This document shows positions 11,517 through 63,899 of a DNA stretch of 64,000 nt, piece after piece (within the stretch, counting starts at the first letter, position 1; each line of letters opens with the position of its first letter). This stretch comes from Candidatus Kapaibacterium sp. (GTDB taxonomy: Bacteria; Bacteroidota; Ignavibacteria; Kapaibacteriales; UBA2268): the NCBI GenBank assembly GCA_041675005.1, contig JBAYUQ010000007.1:89-64088 (forward strand), in the 5' to 3' direction. Under the pieces are notes generated by a model. It was given only the letters and a program-made list of their open reading frames with translations, was not told the DNA's origin and ran no database searches. A program made the translations under genes and the position numbers.

Positions 11517-11786
11517 ATGTCAATAGAATTAAAAAGAAGTGATTTAAAGTTTGAATATATTTGGACGAGAGACAATGGTGACTCTCTTAGTACTGATGAG
11601 CGAGATAGAAGTAAAATAGATTTGGATGAAGGATATGAAGTGCTTCATTTCTTAAATTCATTATATAAAGACTTAAATATTAATATTAAAATAGAGGCTT
11701 TGTATATTGAAGATTTACTATATCAAAAACCTGGTAAATTACAGATTAGGAAGGATATTAAGGATTGGATAAAAACACAAATCTGA
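11517..11786 (+). CDS. hypothetical protein
   Basis: 89-aa ORF, AAGAATG start context. No motif. Confidence 0.35.
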   Translation: MSIELKRSDLKFEYIWTRDNGDSLSTDERDRSKIDLDEGYEVLHFLNSLYKDLNINIKIEALYIEDLLYQKPGKLQIRKDIKDWIKTQI

Positions 11787-11801
11787 AATAGTGTTATAAT
11801 C

Positions 11802-12428
11802 TTATTTTATAACATTTATAAACCAATATGCTTCAATCTTATCTGCTAATATTTGACCTGAGTGTACAACTCTCCCCAAATTTCGTTTATTCTCTTCACT
11901 CGGCCAAGGATCTCGAACAATTATATTTGTTATTATAGGTCCAATTTGAGATAAATAATAGCTTACTGCAGTTACAACAACAGCATGACCAGAATTAGGA
12001 CCCGTTTTATAAGCTATAATGACAGGCCTTTGATTTATAAGTTGTTCGATAAGTGTAGCTGGTGTAGGGGCTCCTCTTCCCATTAAAGCTTGGACAGTAT
12101 AAGCATATCCATAACTATCAATACCCCAATTGTTTAAGTTATAATGAATCGATTCTAGTGAACCTCCCCAGTTAGGTAAGTTTCCATAATCATCAGTTCC
12201 ATATGTACGATAAACAATTTGTTCTTGACTAATATTTACACCATAGCCAGTTAAAACCATTTGGATTGATGCAGCCCAACACCATTGAGAACTATTTTGT
12301 TTCGCTGAATAAAAGTTTACAACTCCAGATGGAACACCGACAGTTATTTGTTGTGCATTAGTATTTAATGTTGCGATAGCTAACAATAAAGGAATACAAA
12401 AAGTGAATTTAATATTGACATGTCTCAT
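11802..12428 (-). CDS. secreted papain-like cysteine peptidase-like protein (Peptidase_C39_2/BtrH-like)
   Basis: Signal peptide (MRHVNIKFTFCIPLLLAIATLNTNAQQ). 'QNSSQWCWAASIQMVLTGYG' matches the C39-like Q...C.xAS..M.L nucleophile motif; downstream 'SGHAVVVTAV' is a candidate catalytic His. Confidence 0.55.
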   Translation of the reverse strand: MRHVNIKFTFCIPLLLAIATLNTNAQQITVGVPSGVVNFYSAKQNSSQWCWAASIQMVLTGYGVNISQEQIVYRTYGTDDYGNLPNWGGSLESIHYNLNNWGIDSYGYAYTVQALMGRGAPTPATLIEQLINQRPVIIAYKTGPNSGHAVVVTAVSYYLSQIGPIITNIIVRDPWPSEENKRNLGRVVHSGQILADKIEAYWFINVIK

Positions 12429-12547
12429 AACCTATCCTGATTATTTGATTTAACAATTAAGCTAATACCAATTAAATAAAAAATTCAAACAAAAAGAAAA
12501 AATTACTAAAAAAATACTAGCACTGAACTTATAGAGCAATGCAGGAA

Positions 12548-12955
12548 CTACTTAATAATATCAATAATCTCCCACCCCTTCATAATATGCCTAAAATACT
12601 CATTTGTTGGCTTCAAATCGACTCCAAGCATATCTTCATTAGCGATGTAAACAACACATTCTTTAAGACCGTCGGCAGTCTCTATACTCAAATAACTCTT
12701 GGTATAATGTGCAGGAAATCCCTCATACATATCAAGTATCTTAATCGCTTTCTGGGATAATTTATAAATTATACCAGCAACATAGGAATCATCACAGATT
12801 TCTATGGTTGCATATCCTCGGCCTGGTATATTAGATTTTTTGTTGAAAGTTAGTTTATAACCTTGCAAGACTCCATGTTCCATTCCATAATAAACACCAA
12901 CCCTCTCTTTTAGCCTGTCTGGGTTCATATTTGAACCATATGCGAAGTATAACAT
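12548..12955 (-). CDS. gamma-glutamyl cyclotransferase (GGCT/AIG2/GGACT-like)
   Basis: N-terminal 'MLYFAYGSNMNPDRLKERVG' is the YGSNL/M signature of the AIG2-like/GGCT fold; ~135 aa is typical. Confidence 0.7.
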   Translation of the reverse strand: MLYFAYGSNMNPDRLKERVGVYYGMEHGVLQGYKLTFNKKSNIPGRGYATIEICDDSYVAGIIYKLSQKAIKILDMYEGFPAHYTKSYLSIETADGLKECVVYIANEDMLGVDLKPTNEYFRHIMKGWEIIDIIK

Positions 12956-40978: not shown

Positions 40979-41581
40979 TTAATGAATTATTTTTGAACCG
41001 ATAATATCCAAATGTTTACTTGTCTCCAAAAACTGCTTATCTTCAAAACTAATTGTATCAAGACTTTTCGAAAAACCTAAAACTTGTTTTTCAAATTTAA
41101 TTGATAAACTATCAGCATTTCTCATATTATATTCACTTAGTTTGTTCAAAATAGTTATATCATCAAAATAATAAATATGGTAATTAAAGTAGTTAATATT
41201 TCTATCGAGTATTTTTTTATTTATTGTTATTTTAATAATAAAATTAGAGTTAGGTTGAATCCTATAAAACATTGGCACTTCAAATAGTGCTGACTTCAAA
41301 TCATTACCACGAATTTCTGTGTTTAAAAATTTATATTCATCTTCAGAAAAGTATAATTTATTGATTAGAAATTCTGTACTCCAAATATTATCTATATCTC
41401 TATTTTTACGAGTACTGTCATCTAATACAATCCAATTATTGGCAAGTATAAATATAGCGTTATTTGATGTATTTTCTATATTAATTGAATCTATATAATA
41501 CTGAGGAGTAATTTGTGAATTCTTAGAATCACAAGAAATTAAATGAAACAATATAATTGAAATTAGTATTTTCATCATCAT
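40979..41581 (-). CDS. lipoprotein-like hypothetical protein (immunity-protein candidate)
   Basis: Signal peptide with lipobox-like 'LISCDS'. 200 aa. Lies in the array downstream of the RHS toxin tip. Confidence 0.4.
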   Translation of the reverse strand: MMMKILISIILFHLISCDSKNSQITPQYYIDSINIENTSNNAIFILANNWIVLDDSTRKNRDIDNIWSTEFLINKLYFSEDEYKFLNTEIRGNDLKSALFEVPMFYRIQPNSNFIIKITINKKILDRNINYFNYHIYYFDDITILNKLSEYNMRNADSLSIKFEKQVLGFSKSLDTISFEDKQFLETSKHLDIIGSKIIH

Positions 41582-41778
41582 TCCTGTGACTGTTTTTTAT
41601 ACTTCTCTGCACCATTCCTTGTATCAATAGGTGTAAAAGTCAGCCAAAACTCCCTACCCGTGTTACCAGAGTTCTGTATTACCTCAAAGTCAGATTTTAC
41701 TTTCTCTACATCTATTTTTGAGTATGTAAAAATAGGGGTAAAGAGTAGTATTAGTATTATTTTATTTAGTGTTATCAT
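41578..41778 (-). CDS. small secreted hypothetical protein (starts with 136-bp module copy 2)
   Basis: 66 aa; signal peptide MITLNKIILILLFTPIFTYS. Confidence 0.35.
   Translation of the reverse strand: MITLNKIILILLFTPIFTYSKIDVEKVKSDFEVIQNSGNTGREFWLTFTPIDTRNGAEKYKKQSQE
41643..41778. repeat. 136-bp repeat copy 2
   Basis: See copy 1. Confidence 0.7.
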
Positions 41779-42166
41779 AAGGTTTTAAATTTTTTTTAAT
41801 CGAATCAAAATAATATTTAGGCAACACATTTTCGAAATGATGAATATATTTTGATTCTAAATTGTAATACTTTTCATTAATTAATAGAATTTCAAAATTT
41901 ATAATCTCATAATAAATTGTATCTATTATATAATTATGGCTTAGTTTAATACAAGCATGTTGATTAATTAAATTGGGTTTTTCAAGTTCTTTTGAACTGG
42001 ATATACTGTCTAATACTAAAGGGCAAAACCATTCGTCAAACTTTTGTGATTTTATAGAAACATTGTTCTGTATATCCTTGAATTCTAATTTATAACTGTA
42101 GTATTTTGTTTGACATGAAATTTCATATCCTGTTAATATTAAAAGAACTATTATAACCTTAATCAT
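41762..42166 (-). CDS. secreted hypothetical protein (immunity-protein candidate)
   Basis: Signal peptide MIKVIIVLLILTGYEISCQ; 134 aa. Confidence 0.4.
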   Translation of the reverse strand: MIKVIIVLLILTGYEISCQTKYYSYKLEFKDIQNNVSIKSQKFDEWFCPLVLDSISSSKELEKPNLINQHACIKLSHNYIIDTIYYEIINFEILLINEKYYNLESKYIHHFENVLPKYYFDSIKKNLKPYDNTK

Positions 42167-42174
42167 TTAATTAC

Positions 42175-42555
42175 CTACCAAATTTTATAGTTAATTGGAA
42201 AAAATTCATCTGTTAGTTCTATTATTTCTTTAAATTCATTTTTTTTTGAATCCATTCGATTTAGAATCAGTGTGTCACGTTGACAACCTTTAAATAAAAT
42301 GATTATTGTTTTAGTTTGACTTGGGTAAAATTTATTTCTTATATCAATTTTAGACATTAGGGCTTCAAATCGATTAACTATTGAATCATTATCAATTTGA
42401 ATATGTAATTGAGAATCAAAGGTTATAAAACCTTCAATACTTTTTTGATAGCCTTCTTTAGTACCTGAATAAGATTCAGTAAATATTTCAATGCTTGAAT
42501 CTTTTGAAATTAATAAGTTACCAATCAATATAAAAATAAAAATTAATTTTTTCAA
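42175..42555 (-). CDS. secreted hypothetical protein (immunity-protein candidate)
   Basis: Signal peptide MKKLIFIFILIGNLLIS; 126 aa. Confidence 0.4.
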   Translation of the reverse strand: MKKLIFIFILIGNLLISKDSSIEIFTESYSGTKEGYQKSIEGFITFDSQLHIQIDNDSIVNRFEALMSKIDIRNKFYPSQTKTIIILFKGCQRDTLILNRMDSKKNEFKEIIELTDEFFPINYKIW

Positions 42556-42557
42556 TT

Positions 42558-42833
42558 TTATTCTCCTTTAGGTTTTGTATCTGTTGGGGAATCAACCTCA
42601 TAAGATTCTCCACAATCATGACAATCCCTCACACCCTCACCATTATTCTTTGAAATTTCATTCTCACTTGGGATTCTAAAAAGTGAAAACATTCCAATTG
42701 ATATTGAAGTATTCATAAAACTATTTCCTGTTATTACCCTATACTCTTCCAAACTATCCCAACCATCTTCCGTTTTTGCAATGTCACATAGTTGGATTAA
42801 ATATAAAAAAATACCGTAAGCCTCAATCAACAA
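42558..42833 (-). CDS. hypothetical protein
   Basis: 91 aa; 'CHDCGESYEV' could be half of a zinc ribbon. Overlaps the LRR gene end. Confidence 0.3.
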   Translation of the reverse strand: MLIEAYGIFLYLIQLCDIAKTEDGWDSLEEYRVITGNSFMNTSISIGMFSLFRIPSENEISKNNGEGVRDCHDCGESYEVDSPTDTKPKGE

Positions 42834-43845
42834 AAGGGTTACCTTCTTGGTTAATAATAATATCTAATTGTATTGGGGGAGCTACACGTGCATTTAAATC
42901 ATTAAACTCAATATCTACTTGATTTAGGCCTTCAATTTCGAAAATATTATAGTTAAAATCCGATATTATATTATCGTCTAAATATAGGTACTTAAGATTT
43001 TTTAAGTTTACAATATTATCTGGTACATATTTAATTTTATTATTGTTTAACAATAAATATTTAAGTTTATGTGCTTTGAATATTTCTTTTGGAATTTCTT
43101 TTAAGTTCATTCTTACAAAAGAAAGGAATTCTAGACTATCAACATTAAACAATAAATCACTTATGTCCTTATTATTATATACGCTGTTTATACTTAGTTG
43201 AACTAGCCTACAATTCTTATTTATTTTTGGGAGTTCAGATAAATTATCCAATACTAATATTTTTAAATCAGATAAATTATTAATCAGGATTTCATTGTTT
43301 AACAAGTTAACAGCCCTTAATTCTAGAGTCTTTAGATTAGTTAATTTATCCAGTGCAGAAATATTATCTAAAAATAATTCATTATAATCATTTAAAATTA
43401 AAAACTCGATTTGATCAGAAAAATCATTGAAATCTATATTACCAATATATGAATTTCTAATATCAAAAGAATTAAATGCCTTTAAGTTTTTGATTTTTGA
43501 ACTGGTGACAGTATTTTGAATAGTAAGACTTAATTGTGATTCTTGGTAATCACTAAAATCAATTATTTTATCGTTTAAAGAAGAGTTTGCTATTGTAATA
43601 CTTTTCAATTGACTTTTATCTACTTTGGATAAAATTGAATTTAATGAACCAATACACTTATCAATATAGATTGATTCAATTTTAAGATTATTAATAATTA
43701 AATCCGAATTTAATTGTTTTAATTCAAGTTTTAATTCATTTTTTAATTCATTTTTAAATATCAAATTATTATTTAAAGATAAAGTACTATATACGACAAA
43801 GATATTCAGAATAAATATAAATATGCATTTTAAAAATGTTTTCAT
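42823..43845 (-). CDS. secreted leucine-rich-repeat protein
   Basis: Signal peptide. Multiple LxxLxLxxN repeats ('LKYLLLNNNKIKYVPDNIVNLKNLKYLYLDDNIIS'). 4-nt overlap with the upstream toxin gene. Confidence 0.6.
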   Translation of the reverse strand: MKTFLKCIFIFILNIFVVYSTLSLNNNLIFKNELKNELKLELKQLNSDLIINNLKIESIYIDKCIGSLNSILSKVDKSQLKSITIANSSLNDKIIDFSDYQESQLSLTIQNTVTSSKIKNLKAFNSFDIRNSYIGNIDFNDFSDQIEFLILNDYNELFLDNISALDKLTNLKTLELRAVNLLNNEILINNLSDLKILVLDNLSELPKINKNCRLVQLSINSVYNNKDISDLLFNVDSLEFLSFVRMNLKEIPKEIFKAHKLKYLLLNNNKIKYVPDNIVNLKNLKYLYLDDNIISDFNYNIFEIEGLNQVDIEFNDLNARVAPPIQLDIIINQEGNPFVD

Positions 43846-44765
43846 TTAGAGTAGTCCTCTAAAACTTGTCTTGGAATAACAACATCATCAGCTGAATCAT
43901 ACCCATTAAATATAGTCACAGATTCGCTATTACGCATTGCACTACCCCAAAATAAAATTCCAAACTGTAAATTTATTCCATATTTGTGGTTAAGTTGATT
44001 TATTGCATCTCTATCACCCTGTGATGGTGTATCTTCATAAGCACCACCAGGGTGATCGTGTGTAAAATAAGTTAGAAATTGTTCGAGCCCTTTACTAACA
44101 CTTTCTTTTATTGCATTATTTACTTCTGTAGTAGCTTTACCTGAATGTTTAGTAGTTGGCGGATCGAAATTCCGGCCCCCTTCGTAAAATGTTCCTCCAC
44201 CTCCCGCACCACCTGCTTCTCCCTGTGTCAGTGATTTATGAAAACTAAGTATATTTGCTAATTCTTCAGAATTAGCATTTGGCAGCTGAGAACTCATTAA
44301 ACTCATTTTATTAAAATCTATACCAAAAACACCTTTTGAATTTTTTAATAATGAAGCAGAAAATGCAAAATTCGAAGTAGCAAATATATTCCCATCATTA
44401 ACACCATCACTTACTTTAGCTCCTCCATTCAATAGAAAATCTGCATCCCCGTTTACATCTATTCTACTTATCGGGCTATTCATACTATACTGATAAGGTG
44501 TCCATCCGTAGTAGTTACTCCAAAGTGGGTCTATACTTATAAACCTACCAGTCTCATATTCGTATTTTCTCACTCCGTGGTCTCCTAGTTTCGATTCGTT
44601 GTCTTTTTCTTTACCTACCCAGTTAAGTAGGGTGCTTTCTGTTTCAGCTAAGTTACTATTTGTCCATCTATCACCGCCATAAGGGTTGTGCGTTTGCATA
44701 GATGTTGGTGTCGTTAAGACACAATTATTGTCAAATTGTATACAAATATAGAATAAAATAATCAC
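43842..44765 (-). CDS. orphan RHS-repeat C-terminal tip with polymorphic toxin domain (no RHS body)
   Basis: 'YEYETGRFISIDPLWSNYYGWTPYQYSMNSPISRIDVNGD' matches the conserved end of the RHS core (YDPxTGRFxSxDP...Y.Y..NNP....DPDG). A ~200-aa variable domain follows, containing 'EQF...HDHPGGAYEDTPSQGD' (JAB/RadC-like HxH...S..D pattern). Only ~70 aa precede the motif. Confidence 0.6.
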   Translation of the reverse strand: MIILFYICIQFDNNCVLTTPTSMQTHNPYGGDRWTNSNLAETESTLLNWVGKEKDNESKLGDHGVRKYEYETGRFISIDPLWSNYYGWTPYQYSMNSPISRIDVNGDADFLLNGGAKVSDGVNDGNIFATSNFAFSASLLKNSKGVFGIDFNKMSLMSSQLPNANSEELANILSFHKSLTQGEAGGAGGGGTFYEGGRNFDPPTTKHSGKATTEVNNAIKESVSKGLEQFLTYFTHDHPGGAYEDTPSQGDRDAINQLNHKYGINLQFGILFWGSAMRNSESVTIFNGYDSADDVVIPRQVLEDYSK

Positions 44766-53094: not shown

Positions 53095-53220
53095 TTAGTC
53101 ATCTTCCTCATAACTAATCTTATCAGTTAGGATTTTCTTCATTGATGAAACTAGCATCCAGATAACAAAACCCCATCCAAGTCCCATAAATATATATGCT
53201 CCAGTGCTTATATGTTCCAT
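53095..53220 (-). CDS. 41-aa single-TM small protein, translationally coupled (TAATG) to the NSS transporter; missing from the ORF track
   Basis: MEHISTGAYIFMGLGWGFVIWMLVSSMKKILTDKISYEEDD*. Its ATG shares one base with the transporter stop. The paralogous copy at 55184-55309 is conserved. Confidence 0.55.
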   Translation of the reverse strand: MEHISTGAYIFMGLGWGFVIWMLVSSMKKILTDKISYEEDD

Positions 53221-54818
53221 TACTTACCTCCTTCTATTTCTTCTTGTGTATAAGGTTTACCGTTATTTCGTTTCCAAGCTAACCAAATCATACCACAAAG
53301 TGACATAAATATAGCTGTCATGAATACTCTAGCTCCCCATCTATAAGCTATCTCGCTTTCAACAACTTTTTCCATTAATAATTTGGGAATTGCTTCTTGA
53401 TATGTCCAAGAAACGAGTATAAATATTAAATATGTTGGTGTCACGTATTTGATTATATAATAGAATATCTTAGGTATTTTTATATCCGAACCACGATTGA
53501 TTTCTTCCCAACCCTTATCCATTCCAAATACCCATGCATAAAGTACAACCTCAAAAAGTGAAATTATAACCAGTCCAAAAGTACCTGCCCAATAATCCAT
53601 TTCTTCTAGGAATCCGTGTTCTAAGTAAAGGAAAACAAAGTGAACACCAATAAAGATTAGAATACCAACAGCAACTGTAGCTTTGTTTCTATTAAACCTA
53701 AATTGCTCTTGCAAGAAGGATATGAGCGGTTGTGCCATAGCCACCGAGGAAGTCACCCCAGCTATAAATAGCAAGAAGAACCAAATAAAGCTAAGTACAT
53801 TACCGAATGGAATCTCTGTGAAAACAGACGCCATTGCTATAATACCAAGGTCAAACGCACCACCTTCGGCTATAGTTTGTGTCATTGCCAATCCAAAAAA
53901 GGCAGTTGCAATTGGAATAGCAATCATACTACCGAGTACAACTTCACTAAACTCATTGATACCAGCAGTAGCCAGCCCACTAAGAGCTATATCATCATCT
54001 TTATCTAAGTAACTAGCATAAGCTTGCAATGTTCCCATCCCCACACTTAAGGTGAAGAACACCTGCCCGGCGGCGGCTAGCCAGATTTTGGAATCTCCGA
54101 GGAGCTCAAAGTTCGGTTCCCATATATAATTTATTCCTACAAAAGCACTGAAATCAGGCAATTCCGGATTTGGAGTCCCCAAAAAAAATACCCACACTAC
54201 AAGAACTATACCGAACCCTACGAGTAAGGGAACAGCAATTGTAGCAAATTTCTCTATCCCTCCCGATATACCCTTCGATAATATATAAAAATTAACGGCT
54301 AAGGTGATTAAAAGAAATATATACGCTGGCCATTGTGAATCGAAGTACCCCTCACCTATCCCTTGGTAGGAGTATAGAAAAGTCTTCATGCTATCTAAGG
54401 TATGAAATTCATTGAATGTCCCAATTAGGGAAAAAAAACTAAATCCAAGAGTCCAGGAGATAATATAGACATAGTATATCATAACTAAGGTTGAGATAAG
54501 AATACCAATCGCCCCGATATACTTGGCGACTTTATTTTTGGTAAGAGTATCAAACATCCCCGGTAAACTACCGTGTCCGTACTGACCTCCCCTTCGTCCT
54601 ATCGACCATTCTACCCACATTAGGGGAATAGCAAGCAATATAAAGGCCGTGAAATAAGGTATCATAAACGCCCCACCGCCATTCTGTGCTGCTTGTACTG
54701 GGAATCTCAAAAAATTCCCCAGACCTACAGCATTACCTGCCATCGCAAATATTAATCCTAACCTACTGTTCCAATGCTCTCTTTCAGCCATATTTCCTTT
54801 TATCTTTTTTATCAACAA
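53220..54818 (-). CDS. neurotransmitter:sodium symporter (NSS/SNF) family transporter
   Basis: 'W.SRLGLIFAMAGNAVGLGNFLRFPVQAAQNGGGAFMIPYF' is the NSS signature (TM1 unwound-region motif); 12 TM. Confidence 0.8.
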   Translation of the reverse strand: MLIKKIKGNMAEREHWNSRLGLIFAMAGNAVGLGNFLRFPVQAAQNGGGAFMIPYFTAFILLAIPLMWVEWSIGRRGGQYGHGSLPGMFDTLTKNKVAKYIGAIGILISTLVMIYYVYIISWTLGFSFFSLIGTFNEFHTLDSMKTFLYSYQGIGEGYFDSQWPAYIFLLITLAVNFYILSKGISGGIEKFATIAVPLLVGFGIVLVVWVFFLGTPNPELPDFSAFVGINYIWEPNFELLGDSKIWLAAAGQVFFTLSVGMGTLQAYASYLDKDDDIALSGLATAGINEFSEVVLGSMIAIPIATAFFGLAMTQTIAEGGAFDLGIIAMASVFTEIPFGNVLSFIWFFLLFIAGVTSSVAMAQPLISFLQEQFRFNRNKATVAVGILIFIGVHFVFLYLEHGFLEEMDYWAGTFGLVIISLFEVVLYAWVFGMDKGWEEINRGSDIKIPKIFYYIIKYVTPTYLIFILVSWTYQEAIPKLLMEKVVESEIAYRWGARVFMTAIFMSLCGMIWLAWKRNNGKPYTQEEIEGGK

Positions 54819-55106
54819 AAATAATAATGTACGAAGTTAGAATTTGAATTTTACGACATGTTTATCATCTTAAACTATGTAAAATTGAATGTTATGCGTT
54901 AACATTTTTTAGATAAAAATTTCTACTTCGCAATTTTTAATACTTGAAGATAAAATAAATAACTGACTATCAAAAAGAAATATCCAAATCGTTAAATATG
55001 GTTTAACTATATCGGGGTTCACAAACCCTTATTTTTTAAGTGAATTAGTGTAGGTTGTAATAGAGTCGAATTAGGTTGGATACGATGAGGTCTAATTGCA
55101 CATAAG

Positions 55107-55130
55107 TTGCAGAGAGGAAAAACTCTGCAA
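55107..55130. promoter_or_regulatory. Perfect palindrome TTGCAGAG-N8-CTCTGCAA between the two NSS paralogs
   Basis: Read directly. Lies ~290 bp upstream of the downstream NSS start. Confidence 0.3.
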
Positions 55131-55183
55131 CTCGTTCGCATTTAGATTTTTATTCTTTTTGATTTTAAATAAAGTTAGTAATA

Positions 55184-55309
55184 TTAATCATCTTCCTCAT
55201 AACTAATCTTACTAGTTAAGATTTTCTTCATCGGATATATAACTAGGAGTAGAACAAACGCCCAGCCTAGCCCCATAAAGATTAGTGCTTCCGTAGATAC
55301 TTGTTCCAT
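55184..55309 (-). CDS. 41-aa single-TM small protein, translationally coupled to the NSS paralog 2; missing from the ORF track
   Basis: MEQVSTEALIFMGLGWAFVLLLVIYPMKKILTSKISYEEDD*. Same TAATG overlap as copy 1. Confidence 0.55.
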   Translation of the reverse strand: MEQVSTEALIFMGLGWAFVLLLVIYPMKKILTSKISYEEDD

Positions 55310-56907
55310 TATTTACCTCCTTCTATTTCATCTTGAGTAAATGCTTTTCCGTTGTTACGCTTCCAAGCTAACCATATCATACTAATAAACGAAATCAATA
55401 TTACGACTATAAATACTCTAGCCCCCAATCTGTAAATAATTTCAGATTCTTTCACACCTTTAAATAATAAAGTAGGTATAGCGCTATCAAAAGTCCAGAA
55501 TGTAAGGATAAAGATTAAGTAAGCTGGTGTTACATACTTTATTATATAGTAAAAAATTCGAGGTATTTTAATATCTGACCCTCTACTGAGCTCTTCCCAT
55601 CCTTTCTTCATACCAAATACCCAAGCAAATAGAATCACTTCGGCTAATGATACAACTACGAGGGCAAAAGTTCCTACCCAATAATCTAACTCATCTAAGA
55701 CCCCATGTTCGAAGAATAAGAATACGAAATGAACCCCAAGCAACATTAGAATCCCAACGGTAATAGTGGATTTTTTTCTGTTGAATCTAAATTGCTCTTG
55801 TAAGAAAGAAATGAGAGGTTGCGCCATAGCAACTGAAGATGTTACACCGGCAACAAATAGCAGAATAAACCAAATAAAGCTCAGAATAGAACCAAATGGA
55901 ATATCAGTAAATACTGACGCCATAGCCACAATACCAAGATTAAATGCTCCACCGGCAGCAATATCTTGAGTCATAGCAAGACCGAAGAAAGCAGTTGCTA
56001 TCGGTATAGCAATCATACCGCCTATAATAACTTCACTAAACTCATTAATACCTGCAGTAGCCAAACCGCTAAGAATAATATCATCGTCTTTTTTGAGATA
56101 ACTTGCATAAGCTTGAAGTGTACCCATACCAACGCTTAAAGTGAAAAATACCTGCCCCGCGGCGGCTAACCATATATTGGAAGTAGTTAACAGTGAGAAA
56201 TCTGGTTTCCATATATAGTCGATTCCAACAAAAGTACTAAACTCTGGCTTCGTCGGATCAGGTGTACCTAAAAAGAAAACCCAAACAACTAGTAATAATC
56301 CAAACCCAATAAGCGTTGGTATTGCAATAGTTGCGAATTTCTCTATACCACCAGAAATTCCTTTAGAAAGTATATAGAAATTTATGACCAGAGTTAACAT
56401 TAGGAAGAAATATGCCGGCCATTGTGAGGTGAAATATCCCGCACCGTTACCTTGATAAGAGTAGAGGAAAGTTTTCATAGTTTCTATATCGTGGATACCA
56501 TCGAAAGTACCGATAATTGAAAAGAAACTGAAACCTAAAGTCCATGATATAATATAGACATAATATACCATAACTAAAAATGAAATCAGAAGCCCTAAAG
56601 CCCCAATGTATTTGGCAACTTTGTTTTGGGTAAGAGTGTCGAACATACCAGGTAAACTACCGTGTCCGTACTGCCCACCCCTACGGCCTATTGACCATTC
56701 GACCCACATTAGAGGAATTCCGAGGAGTAGAAAGGCAATGAAATAGGGTATCATAAACGCCCCGCCACCATTCTGTGCTGCCTGTACGGGAAATCTCAAG
56801 AAATTCCCTAGCCCGACAGCATTACCTGCCATAGCAAATATTAGACCTAACCTATTATTCCAATGCTCTCTTTCTGCCATATTCCCCGTATTCCTTTTTA
56901 TTAACAA
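55309..56907 (-). CDS. NSS-family transporter (tandem paralog)
   Basis: Same signature; about 80% identical to the downstream copy over most of its length. Confidence 0.8.
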   Translation of the reverse strand: MLIKRNTGNMAEREHWNNRLGLIFAMAGNAVGLGNFLRFPVQAAQNGGGAFMIPYFIAFLLLGIPLMWVEWSIGRRGGQYGHGSLPGMFDTLTQNKVAKYIGALGLLISFLVMVYYVYIISWTLGFSFFSIIGTFDGIHDIETMKTFLYSYQGNGAGYFTSQWPAYFFLMLTLVINFYILSKGISGGIEKFATIAIPTLIGFGLLLVVWVFFLGTPDPTKPEFSTFVGIDYIWKPDFSLLTTSNIWLAAAGQVFFTLSVGMGTLQAYASYLKKDDDIILSGLATAGINEFSEVIIGGMIAIPIATAFFGLAMTQDIAAGGAFNLGIVAMASVFTDIPFGSILSFIWFILLFVAGVTSSVAMAQPLISFLQEQFRFNRKKSTITVGILMLLGVHFVFLFFEHGVLDELDYWVGTFALVVVSLAEVILFAWVFGMKKGWEELSRGSDIKIPRIFYYIIKYVTPAYLIFILTFWTFDSAIPTLLFKGVKESEIIYRLGARVFIVVILISFISMIWLAWKRNNGKAFTQDEIEGGK

Positions 56908-57102: not shown

Positions 57103-57789
57103 ATGTTAGGATTTTTAAAATCTAATATTCTAAGCAAGTTTGTGGTGGCTATAACGGGTTTGATCTTGGTGGGTTTCATCTTAGGTCACACCTTAGGTAA
57201 TCTGCTTATATTCGCAGGACCAGAGGCACTCAACACTTACGCAGTAGGATTAAGAGATCTAGGCCCAACTCTTTGGGTAGTTAGGATAGTACTGATAATA
57301 GCAGCTATTTTACACGTAATAACAACTATTAATTTAGTGCGTCAGAATAAGAAAATTGCTTCTGGTTACAAAGTAAGTAACTATAAAGCATCTACTTTTT
57401 CTGCGAGATTCATGGGATATGCAGGTTTGACAATTTTGTTCTTCGTACTATATCACTTAGCTCATTTCACACTTGGGTTCGTTGATGCTAGTACATTTAA
57501 TATGGAGACAACATTGGAGAATGGAAGAGTAGTACATGATGTTTATTCTATGGTCGTTATTGGGTTTAGAAATGTTATTGTGTCGCTATTTTACATATTA
57601 GCTGTATCGTTTTTAGGTTTACACTTAAAGCATGGTATTCATAGTATGTTCCAATCATTAGGAATACATGGTAAAAAATTCACTCCAATGATTCAGAAAG
57701 TAGCTGCAATTGTAGCTTTAATAATAGTAATTTCTTTAATCTCAATACCAATAAGTATAATGTTAGGAATAGTTGGAGGTCAAGTATGA
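57103..57789 (+). CDS. sdhC: succinate dehydrogenase/fumarate reductase cytochrome b subunit (b558 type)
   Basis: 228 aa, 5 TM with conserved His residues. Immediately upstream of the flavoprotein gene with a 4-nt overlap. Confidence 0.7.
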
Positions 57790-59699
57790 AATTAGACGCA
57801 AAAATACCAGAAGGTCCGATACAAGATAAGTGGACCAAACATAAATTTGATGTTAAGTTAATTAACCCTGCTAACAAAAGAAAGTATAAGATAATAGTAG
57901 TTGGAACTGGTCTTGCAGGAGCTTCGGCAGCTGCATCTCTTTCTGAGTTGGGCTACCAAGTAGAAGCGATTACTTTCCATGATAGCTCACGTAGAGCACA
58001 CTCGATAGCTGCACAAGGTGGTATAAACTCAGCTAAGAACTATCCAAACGATGGCGATAGTGTTTGGCGTTTATTCTACGATACTGTCAAAGGGGGCGAT
58101 TTCCGTTCTCGTGAGGCGAATGTATATCGTTTGGCTCAAGTGAGTGTTGATATTATAGACCAAGCTACGGCACAAGGTGTTCCTTTCGCTCGCGAATATG
58201 GTGGAAACTTGGCTAACCGTTCATTCGGTGGCGCTCAAGTTTCTAGAACATTCTACGCTAGAGGGCAAACAGGGCAACAATTGCTATTAGGTGCTTACCA
58301 AGCATTGGCAAAAGAAGTTGAAAGCGGAAGTGTGAAGCTCCGCACAAGAAAAGAGATGATGGACATAATAGTAGTTGACGGCAAAGCTCGTGGAGTTGTA
58401 ACTAGAGACCTAGTAACTGGTGAGTTAGAAACGCATTTAGCAGACTCAGTTGTATTAGCAACTGGTGGCTACGGTAACGTATTCTACTTATCTACTAACG
58501 CACAAGCTTGTAACGTAACAGCTACTTATAGAGCATATAAGAAAGGTGCACTATTCGCTAATCCTTGTTATACTCAAATTCACCCTACTTGTATTCCTGT
58601 TAGTGGTGATTACCAATCTAAGTTGACACTGATGTCAGAGTCACTTAGAAACGATGGTAGAATTTGGGTTCCTAAAGCAAAAGGCGACAAACGTAAGCCC
58701 AGAGAAATTCCTGAAAATGAAAGAGATTATTACTTAGAAAGAAAGTACCCTAGTTTCGGTAACCTTTCTCCTAGAGATATATCGTCACGTTCTGCGAAAG
58801 AAGCATGTGATAATGGTCTTGGAATAGGTGCTACTGGATATGGAGTTTACCTAGATTTCAAAGATGCAATAGCTAGATTAGGTAGAGACACTATCGAAGA
58901 AAGATATGGTAATCTATTCGAAATGTATGAGAGAATCACTGGTGATAACCCTTACGAAACTCCTATGATGATTTACCCTGCATCGCACTATACTATGGGC
59001 GGTCTATGGGTAGATTATAACTTGATGAGTAATTTGGAAGGATTGCACGTAATCGGTGAAGCTAACTTCTCTGACCACGGAGCCAATAGATTAGGTGCAT
59101 CTGCACTTATGCAAGGTCTGGCAGATGGTTACTTCGTATTACCATATACAATAGGTAATTACTTAGCAACTGCTGATCTGAAGAAAATAGACGCTAATAC
59201 TCCTGAATGCAAGGCAACTGTAAAAGAAGTAGAGGATAAAGTCAACAAGCTAATAAATGTAAATGGAACTAAAACTCCATCTTACTTCCATAGAAAATTG
59301 GGTAAGCTAATGTGGGATAATGTAGGAATGGCTAGAAATGAAGCTGGACTGAAACACGCATTAGAAGAAATACCTAAGATTCGTGAGGAATTCTGGAAAG
59401 ACGTGAAGATAAGCGGAACCGGTGCTGAGTATAATATCTCATTAGAAAAGGCATCGAGAGTAGCTGACTTCCTTGAGTTTGCTGAGATTATGGCTTATGA
59501 CGCATTGGACAGAGACGAATCGGCTGGTGCACACTTCCGTGAGGAACACCAAACACCAGACGGCGAAGCAAAAAGAAATGACGAAGATTACAGATATGTA
59601 GCCGCTTGGGAATACAAGGGCGTTGGTCAAAGACCAGAGTTACATAAAGAAGAACTAAAATTTGAAAATGTTAAGCTAGCTGTAAGAAGCTACAAATAA
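57786..59699 (+). CDS. sdhA: succinate dehydrogenase/fumarate reductase flavoprotein subunit
   Basis: '[13 protein letters not shown]' FAD fold; 'SIAAQGGIN' (covalent FAD His region); 'HYTMGGL'. Confidence 0.9.
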
Positions 59700-59718
59700 C
59701 AATTAAGGAGAATAGAAA

Positions 59719-60471
59719 ATGAATTTAAAACTTCATATTTGGCGTCAGAAAAATAATAAAGCAGCGGGAGCTTTCGAGCAATATGCCGTGAGCGATATTT
59801 CTGAAGATATGTCATTTCTTGAAATGCTAGACGTACTGAACGAGGATTTGATAGTAGGTGGCAAAGATCCAGTAGCATTCGACCACGATTGTCGTGAGGG
59901 TATTTGTGGAGCTTGCTCTATGACTATCAACGGTAATCCTCATGGTCCTGAGAAAGCAACTACGGCCTGCCAACTTCACATGAGAAAATTCAACGATGGT
60001 CAAGAGATATACATAGAGCCATTCAAAAACAAATCATTCCCTGTAATCAGAGATTTGGTTGTGGACAGAAGCGCTCTAGATAGAATCATCGAATCTGGTG
60101 GATACATAAGTGTAAAAACTGGTTCCGCACCTGATGCAAATGATATAGCAGTAGCAAAAGCTAAATCAGATGTAGCTATGGATGCAGCGGCTTGTATTGG
60201 TTGTGGTGCATGTGTAGCGGCTTGCCCTAATGGAGCAGCTATGCTATTCACATCTGCCAAATTGAAGCACTTAAACGTGCTACCACAAGGCCAAGCAGAG
60301 AAGAAAAAGCGTACACTAGCTATGGTAGATCAGATGGACAAAGAAGGATTTGGCTCATGTACTAATCACTACGAATGTGAGGCGGCATGTCCTAAGTCAA
60401 TATCTGTTGAGTTCATATCAGAGATGAATTTCGAATATGCAAAAGCAAGAGCAACAGCATACAGAGACTAA
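59719..60471 (+). CDS. sdhB: succinate dehydrogenase/fumarate reductase iron-sulfur subunit
   Basis: 2Fe-2S '[11 protein letters not shown]'; 4Fe-4S '[14 protein letters not shown]'; '[13 protein letters not shown]'. Confidence 0.9.
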
Positions 60472-60568
60472 TCGAAAACAACATAGATTATATTTTAAAA
60501 AGAACCTCGGATTTTATTCGAGGTTTTTTTGTGGGGGAATTTCATAGGGATTTTGTATATTTGGGGAA
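60463..60568. repeat. Direct repeat copy 1 (sdhB last codons + terminator + ~40 bp); matches 63346-63457
   Basis: GCATACAGAGACTAA...ACATAGATTATATTTTAAAAAGAACCTCGGATTTTATTCGAGGTTTTTTTGTGGGGGAAT...TTTTGTA vs GCTTACAGAGTCTAA...ACATAGATTATATTTTTAAAAAGACCTCGGACATTGTTCGAGTTTTTTTGTGGGGGGTAT...TTTTGTA. Confidence 0.7.
60503..60530 (+). terminator. rho-independent terminator after sdhB
   Basis: AACCTCG-gattttatt-CGAGGTT followed by TTTTTTT. Confidence 0.7.
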
Positions 60569-60591
60569 ATGAATTATTGTGACAAAACTTT

Positions 60592-62562
60592 ATGTCTATT
60601 AAAAAACTAAAGAATAAATTAAAAAATGATCAAAGGTTTTTCCCTTATAATCAGAATTATGACTTTAAATATATTAAAGAATATTTAGAAACAAATAATC
60701 TATTAGAAAGTAACTCACAAATAAGTCAAAATGTATTATGCTCAATTTACTTCAATAAATATTTTAAGTATTTTAAAGAACTATATTTTCACACATTTGA
60801 AGTAAATCAAACACCCACAGATGAATTTTTCAAAATACTCATAACCTTGCTTAATAGGGAAGTTTATATTATGGGAAAAAAAATGATGGATTCCATGGAA
60901 AACTTAGATGAGTTTCATTTTGATGAACTAATAAATAGCAAGATAGATTCAATAATACCAGAGTATGGTTTTATTAATGTACAAGGTGGCTTAGAAGCAA
61001 GTCATGAAGCACTTAATACTATAATTAATTTACATCAACTAAACAGACTTATAAGTTCAAATCCTAAAATCGATTTGAGTTCGGTAAAAAATTCATCCAA
61101 ACTTTTAACCTATTCAAACATCTATACATCTGTAAAATTTGCATATGATATGACTGTTTGGGGTAATTATTCAGTTAGCATAGATGACACTAAAGAACTA
61201 ATTAAAATAAGTTGTACGAATACACAACAAGAAAAGATAATTAAGATAGGGCAACGTAGATTTATAAGTAATATGCATTTTAGTATTGCAGTTATGATCT
61301 CAGATATAAAAAAAGAAAATAAAGTTTATAAATTTTTACTTTCAGAGTCAAACAAAAGGCGAAAGCAAAAAAGATTAAAAAGTGTTAAAGTCATTGATGG
61401 AGAAATTTATTTTAATATCGCAAAAGGAAATGATAAAGAGGAAGCAAAAAAAGAATTATTAACTATGTCTGCTGTTTTATCCCATTATCCTTTTTTAACA
61501 AAAGAGCGTCTACTAAATTTTGGAGAACTAAATATTCAAGAAGTCCTCTCAATTTTTATTGTTATTCAAAATTTATTTGAACAAGTATCTCAAATCAGCA
61601 AAGAAGAAACTAATATAATAGATCTCGAATATTTCAACCTCTTTACATTAAAGGTTAAACAAAATGTGCTAATTGAATATGTTTTAACTAAAACTAATTT
61701 TTCGAAATCACAGATTAAAAAAGTTATTGAGGCATTTGTATACAGTCAAGGATATATTAATATTTGGGAAAAACCATTAATTGAGATTAATAATTATCTA
61801 TATCCAGTTTTATTACCTTTATTACAACCTAATTTATTAAGAATTACTGACTATTTATTAGATACAGGAGGGTTTGATTTAAAGAAAAGAGGTAAATTAT
61901 TCGAAAATTATTTAAAATTTGAGCTAATAAATTCACTTAGAGAAAAAGATTATCAAATAAATATTATTAAGAATAATATCTTTAAGAATTCAAAAAAAGA
62001 TTATGAAGAAATTGATTTGATAGCTGAGTTAAAAGGAGTTACTATCATTGCAGAGATAAAGTGTATAAAGTTTCCATTTGAACCAAGAGATTATAACAGT
62101 ATGCTAAAGAGATTAACAGAAGGGACGGAACAAATTAACAGAAAAGTTGAATTTCTAAATAAATTCAAGAATGAGATTAAAGGTTTATCTTTTTTGAATA
62201 AACCTATAGTTAAGCTAGTAATTACAAATTATCCGCACTTTTCTGGATTAGTTATAAATGACGTACCAATTACTGATGCGACATTAATTGATAATTATTT
62301 TATAAATGGGGCTTTTACTAGTGGGCATATTGTATCAAATAAAGATGTGTATGATATTTATGAGGCAAGTAGTTCAAGTATAATTTACTATAATAATGAA
62401 GATGACTTATCCAAGAATCTAAAAAGTTTTTTTCACAATCCAATACCAATTGCTGAGCAACTAAAAGACGTTTATCTTAAAGAAACTCTAATATCGTTAC
62501 CAACTGCAAATCCTAAAATAGTTATGGATTTTTTCGACTTCAAACAATCACATTACATTTAG
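60592..62562 (+). CDS. large hypothetical protein with C-terminal NERD-like PD-(D/E)xK nuclease motif
   Basis: 656 aa, very AT-rich codon usage (N/K/I-rich). Residues ~450-500 'GKLFENYLKFELINSL...DYEEIDLIAELKGVTIIAEIKCIKFPFEP' fit the NERD/restriction-endonuclease-like pattern (E...hD...hhhE.K). No P-loop seen in the N-terminal 440 aa. Confidence 0.5.
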   Translation: MSIKKLKNKLKNDQRFFPYNQNYDFKYIKEYLETNNLLESNSQISQNVLCSIYFNKYFKYFKELYFHTFEVNQTPTDEFFKILITLLNREVYIMGKKMMDSMENLDEFHFDELINSKIDSIIPEYGFINVQGGLEASHEALNTIINLHQLNRLISSNPKIDLSSVKNSSKLLTYSNIYTSVKFAYDMTVWGNYSVSIDDTKELIKISCTNTQQEKIIKIGQRRFISNMHFSIAVMISDIKKENKVYKFLLSESNKRRKQKRLKSVKVIDGEIYFNIAKGNDKEEAKKELLTMSAVLSHYPFLTKERLLNFGELNIQEVLSIFIVIQNLFEQVSQISKEETNIIDLEYFNLFTLKVKQNVLIEYVLTKTNFSKSQIKKVIEAFVYSQGYINIWEKPLIEINNYLYPVLLPLLQPNLLRITDYLLDTGGFDLKKRGKLFENYLKFELINSLREKDYQINIIKNNIFKNSKKDYEEIDLIAELKGVTIIAEIKCIKFPFEPRDYNSMLKRLTEGTEQINRKVEFLNKFKNEIKGLSFLNKPIVKLVITNYPHFSGLVINDVPITDATLIDNYFINGAFTSGHIVSNKDVYDIYEASSSSIIYYNNEDDLSKNLKSFFHNPIPIAEQLKDVYLKETLISLPTANPKIVMDFFDFKQSHYI

Positions 62563-62629
62563 GGTAAATAAAATATTGCCTAAATTAATATATATATTTT
62601 TTGTACTTTTAAAAGAATTTTTTTTAATT

Positions 62630-63208
62630 ATGAATAGCTCCAAAATTGATATTATTTACACTCAGACAGGTAATGTTTGTGTATTTGCTTCGTATTCGAT
62701 TATAATAAATTATTTTTCTAAAGGTAGGAAAAAAATCACAGCACTGTTAAATAAGTATGTTGAAGTTTATAATACCAATCCAACTGGCAATAGTGCTTTG
62801 CAATTAGAAGATTCAATTTACCATCATTATCATTCTTACTGTAAAGCAAACAAATTACGAGGATTTGAGTTTATAAGAGATCAGCATTTAAATGACAAAT
62901 TTTCTACTTACAATTATTGTACTCCTAAAATAATTGCTGTAAATAATAATCACACTGTACTCCCATCTCATCATAATATCAGTTTGAGAAAAAAATTAAA
63001 AAGAGGTGGACTTGCAATGGTTCTTTATCAATCAGGAAATAAACTATTTCATTCAATTGTAATCGGATTTGATAAACGTAAAGGTGGATTTTTTATTAGG
63101 AATCCACAACAATTTCAAAATCATCCTTTATTAAGCAGAACAGACTTCCTAAAAAATAATGATATTTTAGAGTATATTCTTTTTGAGCGTATTAAAAGAA
63201 GGAATTGA
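62630..63208 (+). CDS. hypothetical protein with papain-like Cys/His candidate motifs
   Basis: ORF track starts at a TTG at 62576. The first ATG (62630) gives MNSSKIDIIYTQTGNVCVFASYSII..., a Q..N.C..AS pattern like C39-like/papain-fold nucleophile sites. Later 'LFHSIVIGFD' and 'IRNPQ' are candidate His and Asn/Asp. Confidence 0.4.
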   Translation: MNSSKIDIIYTQTGNVCVFASYSIIINYFSKGRKKITALLNKYVEVYNTNPTGNSALQLEDSIYHHYHSYCKANKLRGFEFIRDQHLNDKFSTYNYCTPKIIAVNNNHTVLPSHHNISLRKKLKRGGLAMVLYQSGNKLFHSIVIGFDKRKGGFFIRNPQQFQNHPLLSRTDFLKNNDILEYILFERIKRRN

Positions 63209-63212
63209 ATCT

Positions 63213-63362
63213 ATGAAATACACGACTGAAGATATTGAACTTATTAAAGCACAAAAGAAAATGCTAGAAATGAGTGAGGTCGATATAAAGAACGGAAGAC
63301 TCATCTTGCAAGAGGCATTGAATAAGAGAAACTTAGAATGGCTAAACGCTTACAGAGTCTAA
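63213..63362 (+). CDS. 49-aa ORF whose last five codons duplicate the sdhB 3' end
   Basis: MKYTTEDIELIKAQKKMLEMSEVDIKNGRLILQEALNKRNLEWLNAYRV*. Ends in ...AYRV* (GCTTACAGAGTCTAA), against sdhB ...AYRD* (GCATACAGAGACTAA). Lies inside repeat copy 2. Confidence 0.3.
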   Translation: MKYTTEDIELIKAQKKMLEMSEVDIKNGRLILQEALNKRNLEWLNAYRV

Positions 63363-63457
63363 GCTCAGCCACATAGATTATATTTTTAAAAAGACCTCGG
63401 ACATTGTTCGAGTTTTTTTGTGGGGGGTATGACAGGAATTTTGTAACTTTGGTGGTT
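63346..63457. repeat. Direct repeat copy 2 (degenerate sdhB-end/terminator copy)
   Basis: See copy 1. The hairpin is weakened here (CCTCGG-acattgtt-CGAG). Confidence 0.7.
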
Positions 63458-63494: not shown

Positions 63495-63899
63495 ATGGCA
63501 CAAAAAGAAATTAACTTAAGTACTGAAGTTTCTAGCTTATTAGATGAAATAAACCACCCATTTAGAAATGAGATTGAAATTCTGCGAAATTGTATATTGA
63601 ACGCAAATAACGATTTGGAAGAGAATATAAAATGGAATGGACCAAACTATTGTTTTGACAATGAAGATAGAATCACAATGAGAGTGCAACCACCTACTAA
63701 ACAAGTTCAATTGATTTTTCATAGAGGAGCTAAAAAGCAGGAACAACCGAAGAATAAACTAATTGAAAGTAAAAGCAAACTGTTAGTTTGGAAAGAAAAT
63801 GACAGAGCCATTATAACTTTTAAAAGTTTGAATGATATCGAAGGTGCAATAGAAGAATTGTCAATAATTGTAAATGAATGGATAAGTAACACGAAGTAA
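63495..63899 (+). CDS. DUF1801 (YdhG-like) domain protein
   Basis: 134 aa; 'ENIKWNGPNYCF' and the overall pattern resemble the DUF1801 family. Tentative. Confidence 0.4.
   Translation: MAQKEINLSTEVSSLLDEINHPFRNEIEILRNCILNANNDLEENIKWNGPNYCFDNEDRITMRVQPPTKQVQLIFHRGAKKQEQPKNKLIESKSKLLVWKENDRAIITFKSLNDIEGAIEELSIIVNEWISNTK

Follow-up and report, generated by a model that had tools for sequence, protein, structure and literature searches.

An AT-rich insert downstream of sdhB in a Kapabacteria-like genome is a mobile cassette with probable defence genes and represents no new two-gene system

Layout and composition of the sdhB locus

The locus lies in a 64-kb stretch of DNA that was analysed as a whole (the window), and all of its features are on the forward strand. 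Its conserved left anchor is sdhB (59719-60471), encoding the Fe-S subunit of succinate dehydrogenase/fumarate reductase (NCBIfam PRK07570, 7.8e-128). The last five sdhB codons, the stop, an intrinsic terminator and about 40 nt more make up the left att-like repeat, R1 (60457-60568). Beyond R1 is an AT-rich foreign insert of about 2.6 kb (60577-63179; GC about 0.25-0.26) with the gene for a 656-aa protein (60592-62562), a member of a large uncharacterised family of proteins of about 650 aa, followed on the same strand after 67 nt by the gene for a 192-aa protein (62630-63208) with a predicted cytoplasmic papain-like cysteine peptidase fold. An antitoxin relic (63180-63362), which can be read as a 49-aa ORF (63213-63362) or as 59 aa from a TTG at 63183, leads into the right att-like repeat, R2 (63348-63457), composed of a copy of the sdhB 3' end (AYRV*), a terminator hairpin (63395-63412) and a downstream segment. 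A DUF1801 gene (63495-63899; Pfam, 5.6e-14) comes next.

GC content drops from about 0.40-0.42 to 0.22-0.29 across 60400-63200. GC3 is 0.18 in both cargo genes versus 0.32 in sdhB and a window median of 0.28, a low value though not a unique one, being the fourth lowest among the 41 long ORFs of this 34% GC window. On the left, the sdhB region is syntenic with relatives at 81-85% nucleotide identity up to about 60567-60576, where homology to them ends; on the right, the insert is limited by antitoxin-derived sequence that begins at 63180. No terminator was found between the 656-aa and 192-aa genes, and this, together with their shared GC3, suggests that the 2.6-kb insert was probably acquired in one piece from an AT-rich donor.

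R1 and R2 are 82% identical across a gap-free 60 nt and about 80% identical across roughly 110 nt (60457-60568 versus 63348-63457), with the last five sdhB codons reading AYRD* in R1 and AYRV* in R2. A 30-nt seed from the repeat, with up to three mismatches, finds these two sites only in 64 kb (0 expected from 100 shuffles); the hairpin CCTCGGA-N5-TTCGAG likewise occurs only twice within the window and is not a genome-wide repeat. Each copy folds as a terminator hairpin with a 7-bp stem, that of R1 lying at about 60503-60524 with a T-run to 60530 (-16.5 kcal/mol, z -5.25). The preliminary description of this DNA had already set out the three ORFs that follow sdhB (656, 192 and 49 aa), the AT-extreme codon usage of the first two, the direct repeats of the sdhB end flanking the segment and the lack of an integrase inside it, and all of these hold, ORF coordinates included.

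It had also recognised that the C-terminus of the 49-aa ORF is the duplicated sdhB end, as is the case, but missed where the rest comes from. This region is 72% identical over 57 aa to an 80-aa antitoxin that precedes ParE in the relative L171, and 88% identical at the nucleotide level to L171 12281-12397. Antitoxin residues 23-79 are kept, the first 22 codons are gone, and the final codons have been replaced by the sdhB-like AYRV* of R2. Its GC3 is 0.42, which is host-like, versus 0.18 in the two cargo genes. The antitoxin-ParE pair is intact in L171, whereas the 64-kb window holds no ParE-like sequence and thus no ParDE-type module. By these alignments, the 49-aa ORF is the relic of a ParE-associated antitoxin whose toxin gene is gone. 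Because it is a truncated antitoxin with host-like GC3, the foreign insert ends near 63180 and not at R2, where the boundary had been placed; the antitoxin remains lie in between.

The two cargo proteins

The AF2 model of the 656-aa protein (pLDDT 88.7, pTM 0.87) begins with a largely helical region (residues 1-414) that may include a winged helix around residues 345-410, followed by a NERD-type nuclease domain and, at about 561-656, a beta-rich C-terminal domain. For the protein itself, searches of Pfam, PADLOC, PHROGs and NCBIfam gave no match (no PADLOC family and no NERD match even at E<=1). Its family, which numbers 1,088 clusters at 50% identity, is without an entry in the searched copies of Pfam, PADLOC and PHROGs, and no solved structure related to it by sequence was found. 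Its relatives are more informative: 36 of 76 family representatives match Pfam NERD in the same region at E<=0.01 (best 2.3e-8), several of them just above the PF08378 gathering score of 22.1 bits (22.2-23.3 bits). The predicted catalytic set, E438 (61903-61905), D475 (62014-62016), E488 (62053-62055) and K490 (62059-62061), is near-invariant among them, and this conserved E...D...ExK arrangement on a restriction-endonuclease-like fold is that of the PD-(D/E)xK superfamily. From the modelled fold, the motif and the relatives' NERD matches, we assign residues ~415-560 (61834-62271) to a NERD-type PD-(D/E)xK domain, in agreement with the NERD-like nuclease first proposed for this protein.

Published proteins provide precedents for a nuclease of this kind acting alone. 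ZwsA is a stand-alone defence RNA endonuclease with a NERD domain and the residues E535/D567/E580/K582 (bioRxiv 10.64898/2026.04.06.716636). Like the 656-aa protein it is a multidomain single protein with an E...D-13-ExK set and is found in defence islands; the VHS, DUF647 and S4 domains of ZwsA were not detected in the 656-aa protein, and the sequence comparison covers the NERD domain. Upx, a single-protein PD-(D/E)xK anti-phage sensor-nuclease, is about 1200 aa long (1212-aa chain in PDB 9wuf) and has an NTD, an MD, a CTD and two nuclease domains, the second atypical (PMC13099982, PMC13601566). The 656-aa protein is about half as long with a single nuclease domain, matches no PADLOC model and superposes poorly on Upx (TM 0.32, 12% identity), a remote and purely structural similarity, and we do not identify it as Upx. 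ZwsA and Upx nonetheless support a stand-alone defence reading.

Seven independent genomic contexts could be read for the 656 family and four for the 192 family, so that the association with defence islands is anecdotal and carries no statistic. One 656 homologue lies with Septu PtuA/PtuB (5.7e-90, 1.2e-73), HEPN and type IIG/ISP restriction-modification genes (L004), another with RadC, DUF3871, AAA_24 and DUF4145 (L170), a third with two large serine recombinases (L179), and a fourth has a Dam-class methyltransferase directly upstream (L001). An alternative is that the protein is a conventional restriction endonuclease, either a type II/IIS enzyme with a distant methyltransferase or a modification-dependent type IV enzyme, and not a sensor-activated effector. 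We consider this unlikely. A methyltransferase adjoins the family gene in only one of the seven contexts, and none was found in the cassette or its flanks, which thus lack the adjacency of a type II system. The N-terminal region is strongly conserved from end to end, with a mean column identity of 55% and many invariant residues, whereas the recognition domains of type II enzymes diverge fast. Finally, in two family fusions of ~1500 aa the catalytic residues are gone and a C-terminal extension shows weak similarity to CHAT; such nuclease-dead forms fit a modular sensor scaffold better, and suggest that the effector of the family may be exchangeable. Judging by these sequence comparisons, the likeliest role of the 656-aa protein is that of a stand-alone defence nuclease.

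The 192-aa protein has the layout of clan CA papain-like enzymes, with the Cys on an N-terminal helix, a His, an Asn/Asp and an oxyanion-hole Gln, as had been noticed from its motifs. The residues concerned, Q12 (62663-62665), C17 (62678-62680), H141 (63050-63052) and N158 (63101-63103), are conserved in homologues, which begin at the same ATG (62630); the last ~9 codons of the gene overlap the antitoxin-derived sequence in another frame. It reaches the threshold of no family HMM among C39/C39-like enzymes, staphopains, C70 (AvrRpt2) and Josephin-type clippases, and its Cys lies just 17 residues into the chain. Membership of C39 or C70 was rejected, with Peptidase_C70 scoring 15.9 bits in the Pfam search, below its cut-off of 19, no C39 match, and no ABC transporter being present at the window locus or the other 192-family loci read. 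The protein has no signal peptide or prodomain, and there is no double-glycine substrate nearby. Its predicted fold is that of a cytoplasmic papain-like cysteine peptidase or amidase.

We considered whether nuclease and peptidase are the two obligate partners of a defence or toxin-like system, as the preliminary description proposed; the peptidase might, for example, activate or restrain the nuclease. They are adjacent on one strand with a 67-nt gap and no terminator between them, their extreme GC3 values are identical, and the weak CHAT protease match in the two 656-family fusions shows that a scaffold-plus-protease theme is present in that family. Against this, a tblastn search with ten 192-family proteins gave no match at ten 656-family loci, the reverse search at four 192-family loci returned only noise, and the two lists of homologues share no contig but the window's own. 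The neighbours of the two families are unrelated to each other, and each family occurs alone in other defence or mobile-element contexts, those of the 192 family being beside type I restriction-modification genes, beside an antitoxin-ParE pair, and as a low-GC moron in a phage-like contig. Because the two genes never co-occur elsewhere, such a system is unsupported, and we regard it as very unlikely. In other words, the 656 and 192 genes are mobile independently of each other elsewhere, although, given their common composition and operon-like layout, the two may still be functionally linked within this lineage.

A variable region downstream of sdhB

We compared the locus with that of five close relatives whose sdhB is 90-96% identical, making six genomes with the window's own. 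The five relatives carry five different cargos after sdhB, among them an AAA ATPase, a 198-aa protein, katG and antitoxin-ParE in L171; a UvrD-type helicase and a 183-aa protein in L172; 187-aa and 87-aa proteins and more in L174; and Lactamase_B, SDR, AraC and more in L175. Both the 656-aa and the 192-aa genes are missing from the site in all five. The flanks are conserved on both sides. The variable region extends beyond the end of the window to about 65280, the start of a conserved Gly_transporter gene, and right-hand synteny picks up again at L088 11563. The DUF1801 gene thus belongs to the variable region; it is missing from the hotspot of L171, L172, L174 and L175 and adjoins sdhB in none of 80 metagenome loci.

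Further repeat copies are present in two of these genomes. Those of L171 follow the 198-aa gene, katG and ParE, and two of them take in 45 nt or more of sdhB coding sequence; those of L174 follow the 87-aa gene and a glyoxalase gene. R1 is orthologous to R1 of L171, L172 and L174, and R2 matches the L171 copy behind katG at 94.5% identity across 55 nt. Divergence between copies within a genome equals that between genomes (77-83% identity over 100 nt), so that a native copy in the window cannot be told from an imported one. No recombinase of the integrase, resolvase or transposase Pfam families lies within 6-10 kb of sdhB in the six genomes, and neither an empty site (sdhB-R-flank) nor an excised circle was found. 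The different genes in each relative and the further repeats in L171 and L174 define a strain-variable cassette hotspot with att-like repeats, which bears out the original suggestion of an insertion at the sdhB terminator. The loci of the relatives effectively refute another reading, in which the repeats are merely terminators that look alike, or the product of an old local duplication, and the two genes are ancestral residents. In its favour, the repeat has an ordinary intrinsic terminator at its core, and the genome is AT-rich overall with a few other genes of similar GC3; against it, both genes are absent from every relative's site, R2 contains sdhB coding sequence, the copies in L171 carry at least 45 nt of such sequence, and the hairpin sequence is found nowhere else in 64 kb. 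The AT-rich insert is therefore a mobile cassette.

A model for the cassette and its implications

The explanation that we favour, and consider probable as a whole, is an sdhB hotspot holding a cassette with two independent accessory genes, a 656-aa defence nuclease and a 192-aa peptidase. In this Kapabacteria-like lineage the region just 3' of sdhB is a hotspot whose cassettes vary between strains and are separated by diverged modules of ~55-110 bp (sdhB 3' end plus terminator) that behave like an att site. The sdhB-proximal AT-rich cassette of ~2.6 kb is joined on its right to the remains of an older antitoxin/ParE cassette. Entry may have occurred by site-specific recombination through a recombinase encoded elsewhere, or by Campbell-type or homology-anchored illegitimate recombination. 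The cassette would be transcribed as a single unit ending at the R2 terminator, and the first 415 residues of the 656-aa protein could serve as sensor or regulator, with the NERD-type PD-(D/E)xK domain as the nucleic-acid-cleaving effector.

Comparable arrangements are the composite SCC and pseudo-SCC arrays at the 3' end of orfX (rlmH) in staphylococci and the accretion of ICE and CIME elements at the 3' end of fda in Streptococcus thermophilus. As in those, cargo of strain-variable content sits at the 3' end of a housekeeping gene, direct repeats copying that end lie at both ends of the element, and several elements can stand in tandem, some without a recombinase of their own. In contrast, no Ccr-type or tyrosine recombinase was found in or near any of the six arrays; the repeats, at ~55-110 bp, exceed theirs in length and have a terminator hairpin at their centre, and the elements are very small (1-3 genes). 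The array does not resemble an integron: no integrase lies beside it in the 6-10 kb around sdhB, and each repeat consists of sdhB coding sequence followed by a terminator hairpin with a 7-bp stem. Core defence hotspots flanked by conserved genes, as in Pseudomonas aeruginosa (PMC10250203), resemble this locus in having a fixed site between conserved flanks (here sdhB and Gly_transporter) with differing accessory or defence genes per strain. Here, genes unrelated to defence (katG, Lactamase_B, SDR, AraC, DUF1801) are found among the cargo as well, and copies of the 3' end of the flanking gene stand between the cassettes.

A bolder proposal, which we think quite unlikely, is that the sdhB-end copies are recombination sites of a dedicated integron- or SCC-like capture platform, without an adjacent integrase, that stocks accessory and defence cassettes of 1-3 genes behind sdhB in Kapabacteria, and that the 656 family is a widespread single-protein immune family in which an N-terminal sensor scaffold drives either a NERD nuclease or, in the nuclease-dead fusions, a CHAT-like protease.

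The cassette of our favoured explanation is fairly ordinary, though real, and since it represents no new nuclease-peptidase system, follow-up effort in that direction is saved. The locus gives the position of a hotspot in an uncultured lineage that has been little studied (Kapabacteria-like MAGs), where small cassettes marked by sdhB terminator copies are exchanged between strains. These copies offer a simple handle with which to mine accessory and defence genes and to ask how cassettes move without an adjacent recombinase, and the 656 family, with more than 1,000 clusters at 50% identity, is a reasonable stand-alone defence candidate that is testable by cloning one gene.

Variation among relatives at the 3' end of sdhB

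The sdhC, sdhA and sdhB genes (57103-60471) are followed by plus-strand ORFs of 656 aa (60592-62562), 192 aa (62630-63208) and 49 aa (63213-63362) and by a plus-strand DUF1801 gene (63495-63899; Pfam, 5.6e-14), ORF calling having returned the same layout and coordinates as the preliminary description. The direct repeat proposed there was also borne out by alignment. The left copy, R1 (60457-60568), comprises the 3' end of sdhB with its terminator and ~40 further bases, and is duplicated as R2 at 63348-63457 with 82% identity across a gap-free 60 nt and ~80% across roughly 110 nt, sdhB codons included, such that AYRV* in R2 is the counterpart of AYRD* in sdhB. Terminator folding is predicted for both copies alike. 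Within the 64 kb, R1 and R2 are the only sites of a 30-nt repeat seed (≤3 mismatches) and likewise the only sites of the hairpin CCTCGGA-N5-TTCGAG, the chance expectation being approximately zero. A search of the region yielded no tRNA gene or Rfam family.

Across the 656-aa and 192-aa genes GC drops to 0.22-0.29, and GC3 is 0.18 in both, whereas sdhB has 0.32 and the 41 long ORFs of the window have a median of 0.28. The codon usage is AT-rich, as first described; these values are low yet shared by other genes in a window of 34% GC, and composition therefore supports an insertion without proving one.

Close relatives, whose sdhB is 90-96% identical, were recovered by a protein search with sdhB; a genome-contig scan with the same query gave ≤67% identity among the matches listed, and hence no close relatives, and an exact-sequence look-up returned the same strain only. 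The relatives carry different genes directly 3' of sdhB. In locus L171 these are an AAA ATPase (663 aa), a 198-aa protein, katG, an 80-aa antitoxin and ParE; in L172, a UvrD-type helicase with a Top1 zinc ribbon (891 aa) and a 183-aa protein; in L174, proteins of 187 and 87 aa, then a large Por-secreted peptidase and others; and in L175, a 127-aa protein, Lactamase_B, SDR, AraC and others. The antitoxin is the only cargo protein common to more than one genome. Synteny with the relatives on the left flank (81-85% nucleotide identity) ends at ~60567-60576 and, where the right flank is present, restarts at a convergent Gly_transporter gene ~1.3 kb past the window end. The DUF1801 gene lies within the variable region too; none of 80 loci found in a metagenome scan with DUF1801 carries sdhA, sdhB or the island genes, which makes the gene unsuitable as a marker of synteny. 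Neither the relatives' loci nor the metagenome DUF1801 loci yielded an empty site. The junction comparison indicates that the 656-aa and 192-aa genes are not ancestral residents, other genes occupying the site in each of the relatives. The locus is a strain-variable hotspot at the sdhB 3' end. The cassette resembles those of SCC/pseudo-SCC or ICE/CIME accretion and also those of core defence hotspots.

Several further features were recorded. The 891-aa helicase of L172 (6882-9557), with its C-terminal Top1-type zinc ribbon, matches PADLOC GajB helicase models (1.3e-42) and stands at the hotspot without a GajA partner. Upstream of sdhC lie two tandem SNF-family (PF00209) transporter genes of 523 aa (53220-56880, minus strand; 1-3162 of L088, the window strain's own locus); L171, L172 and L174 have a single such gene, to which the window strain's second copy is ~80% identical in nucleotide sequence. 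A second AT-rich stretch, at 40979-44765 on the minus strand, has the lowest GC in the window (0.22-0.24). It encodes a 307-aa protein in which a C-terminal domain comes after an Rhs/YD-type core end (…GRFISIDPL…PYQYSMNSPISRIDVNGD). A leucine-rich-repeat protein of 340 aa is encoded downstream, as are three small lipoprotein-like ORFs (126, 134 and 200 aa), and the stretch resembles an orphan polymorphic-toxin tip accompanied by immunity-like genes.

Repeat copies, an antitoxin relic and cassette entry

Additional copies of the sdhB end and terminator separate genes in the relatives. In L171 they follow the 198-aa gene, katG and ParE, and those after katG and ParE each retain 45 nt or more of the sdhB coding region. 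L174 has them after the 87-aa gene and after a glyoxalase gene. The copies have in common the core ACATAGATTATATTTTTAAAAAGACCTCGGA-N5-TTCGAGGTTTTTTTGTGGGG. The L171 array (6739-12753) contains at least four such modules, which set apart an AAA-ATPase and 198-aa cassette, katG alone and an antitoxin-ParE cassette; a catalase-peroxidase gene as a one-gene cassette between att-like repeats is unusual. Copies diverge as much within as between genomes: identity is 77-83% across 100 nt and 84-91% across the core, a divergence comparable with that of the sdh operon itself. For this reason neither window copy can be assigned as native, and we rejected the designation of one as native and the other as imported. 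Codons of sdhB serve no purpose elsewhere, and finding them in the repeats means that each cassette was once joined to, or integrated through, the sdhB end. Such coding remnants are the signature of att-type duplication and tandem accretion.

At the right end of the insert, window positions 63180-63350 match an 80-aa antitoxin, the one encoded just before ParE in L171, and correspond to its residues 23-79 (72% protein identity, 88% nucleotide identity). This segment has a GC3 of 0.42, lacks the first 22 codons and has its final codons substituted by AYRV* of R2, in agreement with the earlier derivation of the 49-aa ORF's C-terminus from the duplicated sdhB end; no ParE-like sequence was found within the window. 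The 49-aa ORF is the decayed remnant of an older toxin-antitoxin cassette, not new cargo. With antitoxin-derived sequence beginning at 63180, the AT-rich insert proper spans ~60577-63179. It directly abuts the relic with no repeat copy between them, which suggests that the join was illegitimate or that a deletion occurred later.

The preliminary description noted no integrase inside the island, and none of six genomes has an integrase, resolvase or transposase family member within 6-10 kb; a search of viral contigs for the core of the repeat gave no match. Cassettes may have entered by way of a recombinase supplied in trans, by Campbell-type recombination of circles, or by illegitimate recombination anchored in homology. 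We rejected an integron-like reading, since no IntI lies beside the arrays and the repeats are unlike attC sites. A more novel but less likely reading, as yet unproven, would make the site a dedicated cassette platform without an adjacent integrase.

The 656-aa protein as a predicted stand-alone nuclease

The window's 656-aa protein has no family match in Pfam, PADLOC, PHROGs or NCBIfam, and neither it nor the 192-aa protein is matched in a PDB sequence search or by tblastn against plasmids and phages. A word-indexed homology search found only 23 relatives; a profile search expanded the family to 1,088 clusters at 50% identity, which with few exceptions are full-length, ~650 aa. Residues E438, D475, E488 and K490 are invariant across 21 close homologues, and the E-D-(E/D)-K set is intact in 141/145 family representatives. 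The proposed NERD assignment is right for the family, because 36 of 76 representatives match Pfam NERD in the catalytic-motif region (best E 2.3e-8), although no NERD match is obtained with the window protein. For residues 1-414 no convincing match emerged beyond a weak winged-helix hint, consistent with the initial impression that the N-terminal ~440 aa lack a recognised motif. The AlphaFold2 model is confident (pLDDT 88.7, pTM 0.87), and Upx is its sole significant Foldseek match (E 4.5e-4). Upx (PMC13099982, PMC13601566) and the NERD RNA endonuclease ZwsA (bioRxiv 10.64898/2026.04.06.716636) are published stand-alone proteins of the same general design. We consider it probable that the 656-aa protein is likewise a stand-alone defence nuclease.

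Two homologues, P0168 and P0170, are fusions of ~1500 aa that have lost the catalytic residues, the set reading M-S-E-S or R-S-E-C instead of E-D-E-K, with an ~850-aa C-terminal extension whose end weakly matches a CHAT caspase-like protease domain (E 0.0058). The extension may represent an effector swap, and the fusions suggest a sensor scaffold with exchangeable effectors.

The main variant reading, that the protein is a conventional restriction enzyme, strikes us as rather unlikely. Among the seven family contexts the only R-M-like arrangement is that of L001 (4926-7947), which carries the closest homologue outside the window strain (49% identity). A Dam-class (MethyltransfD12) methyltransferase gene lies 74 nt upstream of this homologue, and its start overlaps the recJ stop. 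The other contexts include Septu PtuA/PtuB, a HEPN protein and type IIG/ISP R-M (L004), mobile-element genes and DUF4145 (L170), two serine recombinases (L179, an IMG/VR contig) and unknown neighbors (L002, L169). Comparison of these neighbors among themselves revealed no hidden conserved partner.

Association with the 192-aa gene

The 192-aa protein has an AlphaFold2 model of pLDDT 93.4 and retains the predicted papain-like arrangement: Q12, C17 and H141 are nearly invariant among its homologues, with either N or D at position 158. PADLOC, PHROGs and NCBIfam returned nothing, and we found no signal peptide, ABC transporter partner or above-threshold family HMM. Homologues are few (10 in a homology search), and occur next to type I R-M, next to antitoxin-ParE, and as a low-GC moron amid phage structural genes. 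The gene is accessory and mobile. The papain-like gene is immediately followed by a small antitoxin-type gene at two independent loci, that of homologue P0028, where ParE is intact, and the window (62630-63362), which has the relic alone; this adjacency may be coincidence or loose association.

The earlier interpretation took the nuclease and the peptidase to form a system. The two genes neighbor each other on one strand, no terminator separating them, and their identical extreme composition suggests that they were probably acquired together. An obligate pair is nonetheless very unlikely, as co-occurrence fails: a 192-family relative is present at none of 10 656-family loci and a 656-family relative at none of four 192-family loci, the neighbors of the homologues are mutually unrelated, and only the window's contig is common to both hit lists. 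The 663-aa and 198-aa pair of L171 was rejected as distant homologues of the window pair, BLASTP giving no similarity and the 663-aa protein being an AAA ATPase. The observation is confirmed and the original interpretation holds in part: insertion at the sdhB terminator is supported, the two-gene system is not. We regard the feature as a small cassette of accessory and probable defence genes in the sdhB 3'-end hotspot, with cargo of uncharacterised families and known folds, and the 656 family may represent a new, still unproven, family of single-protein sensor-nucleases.
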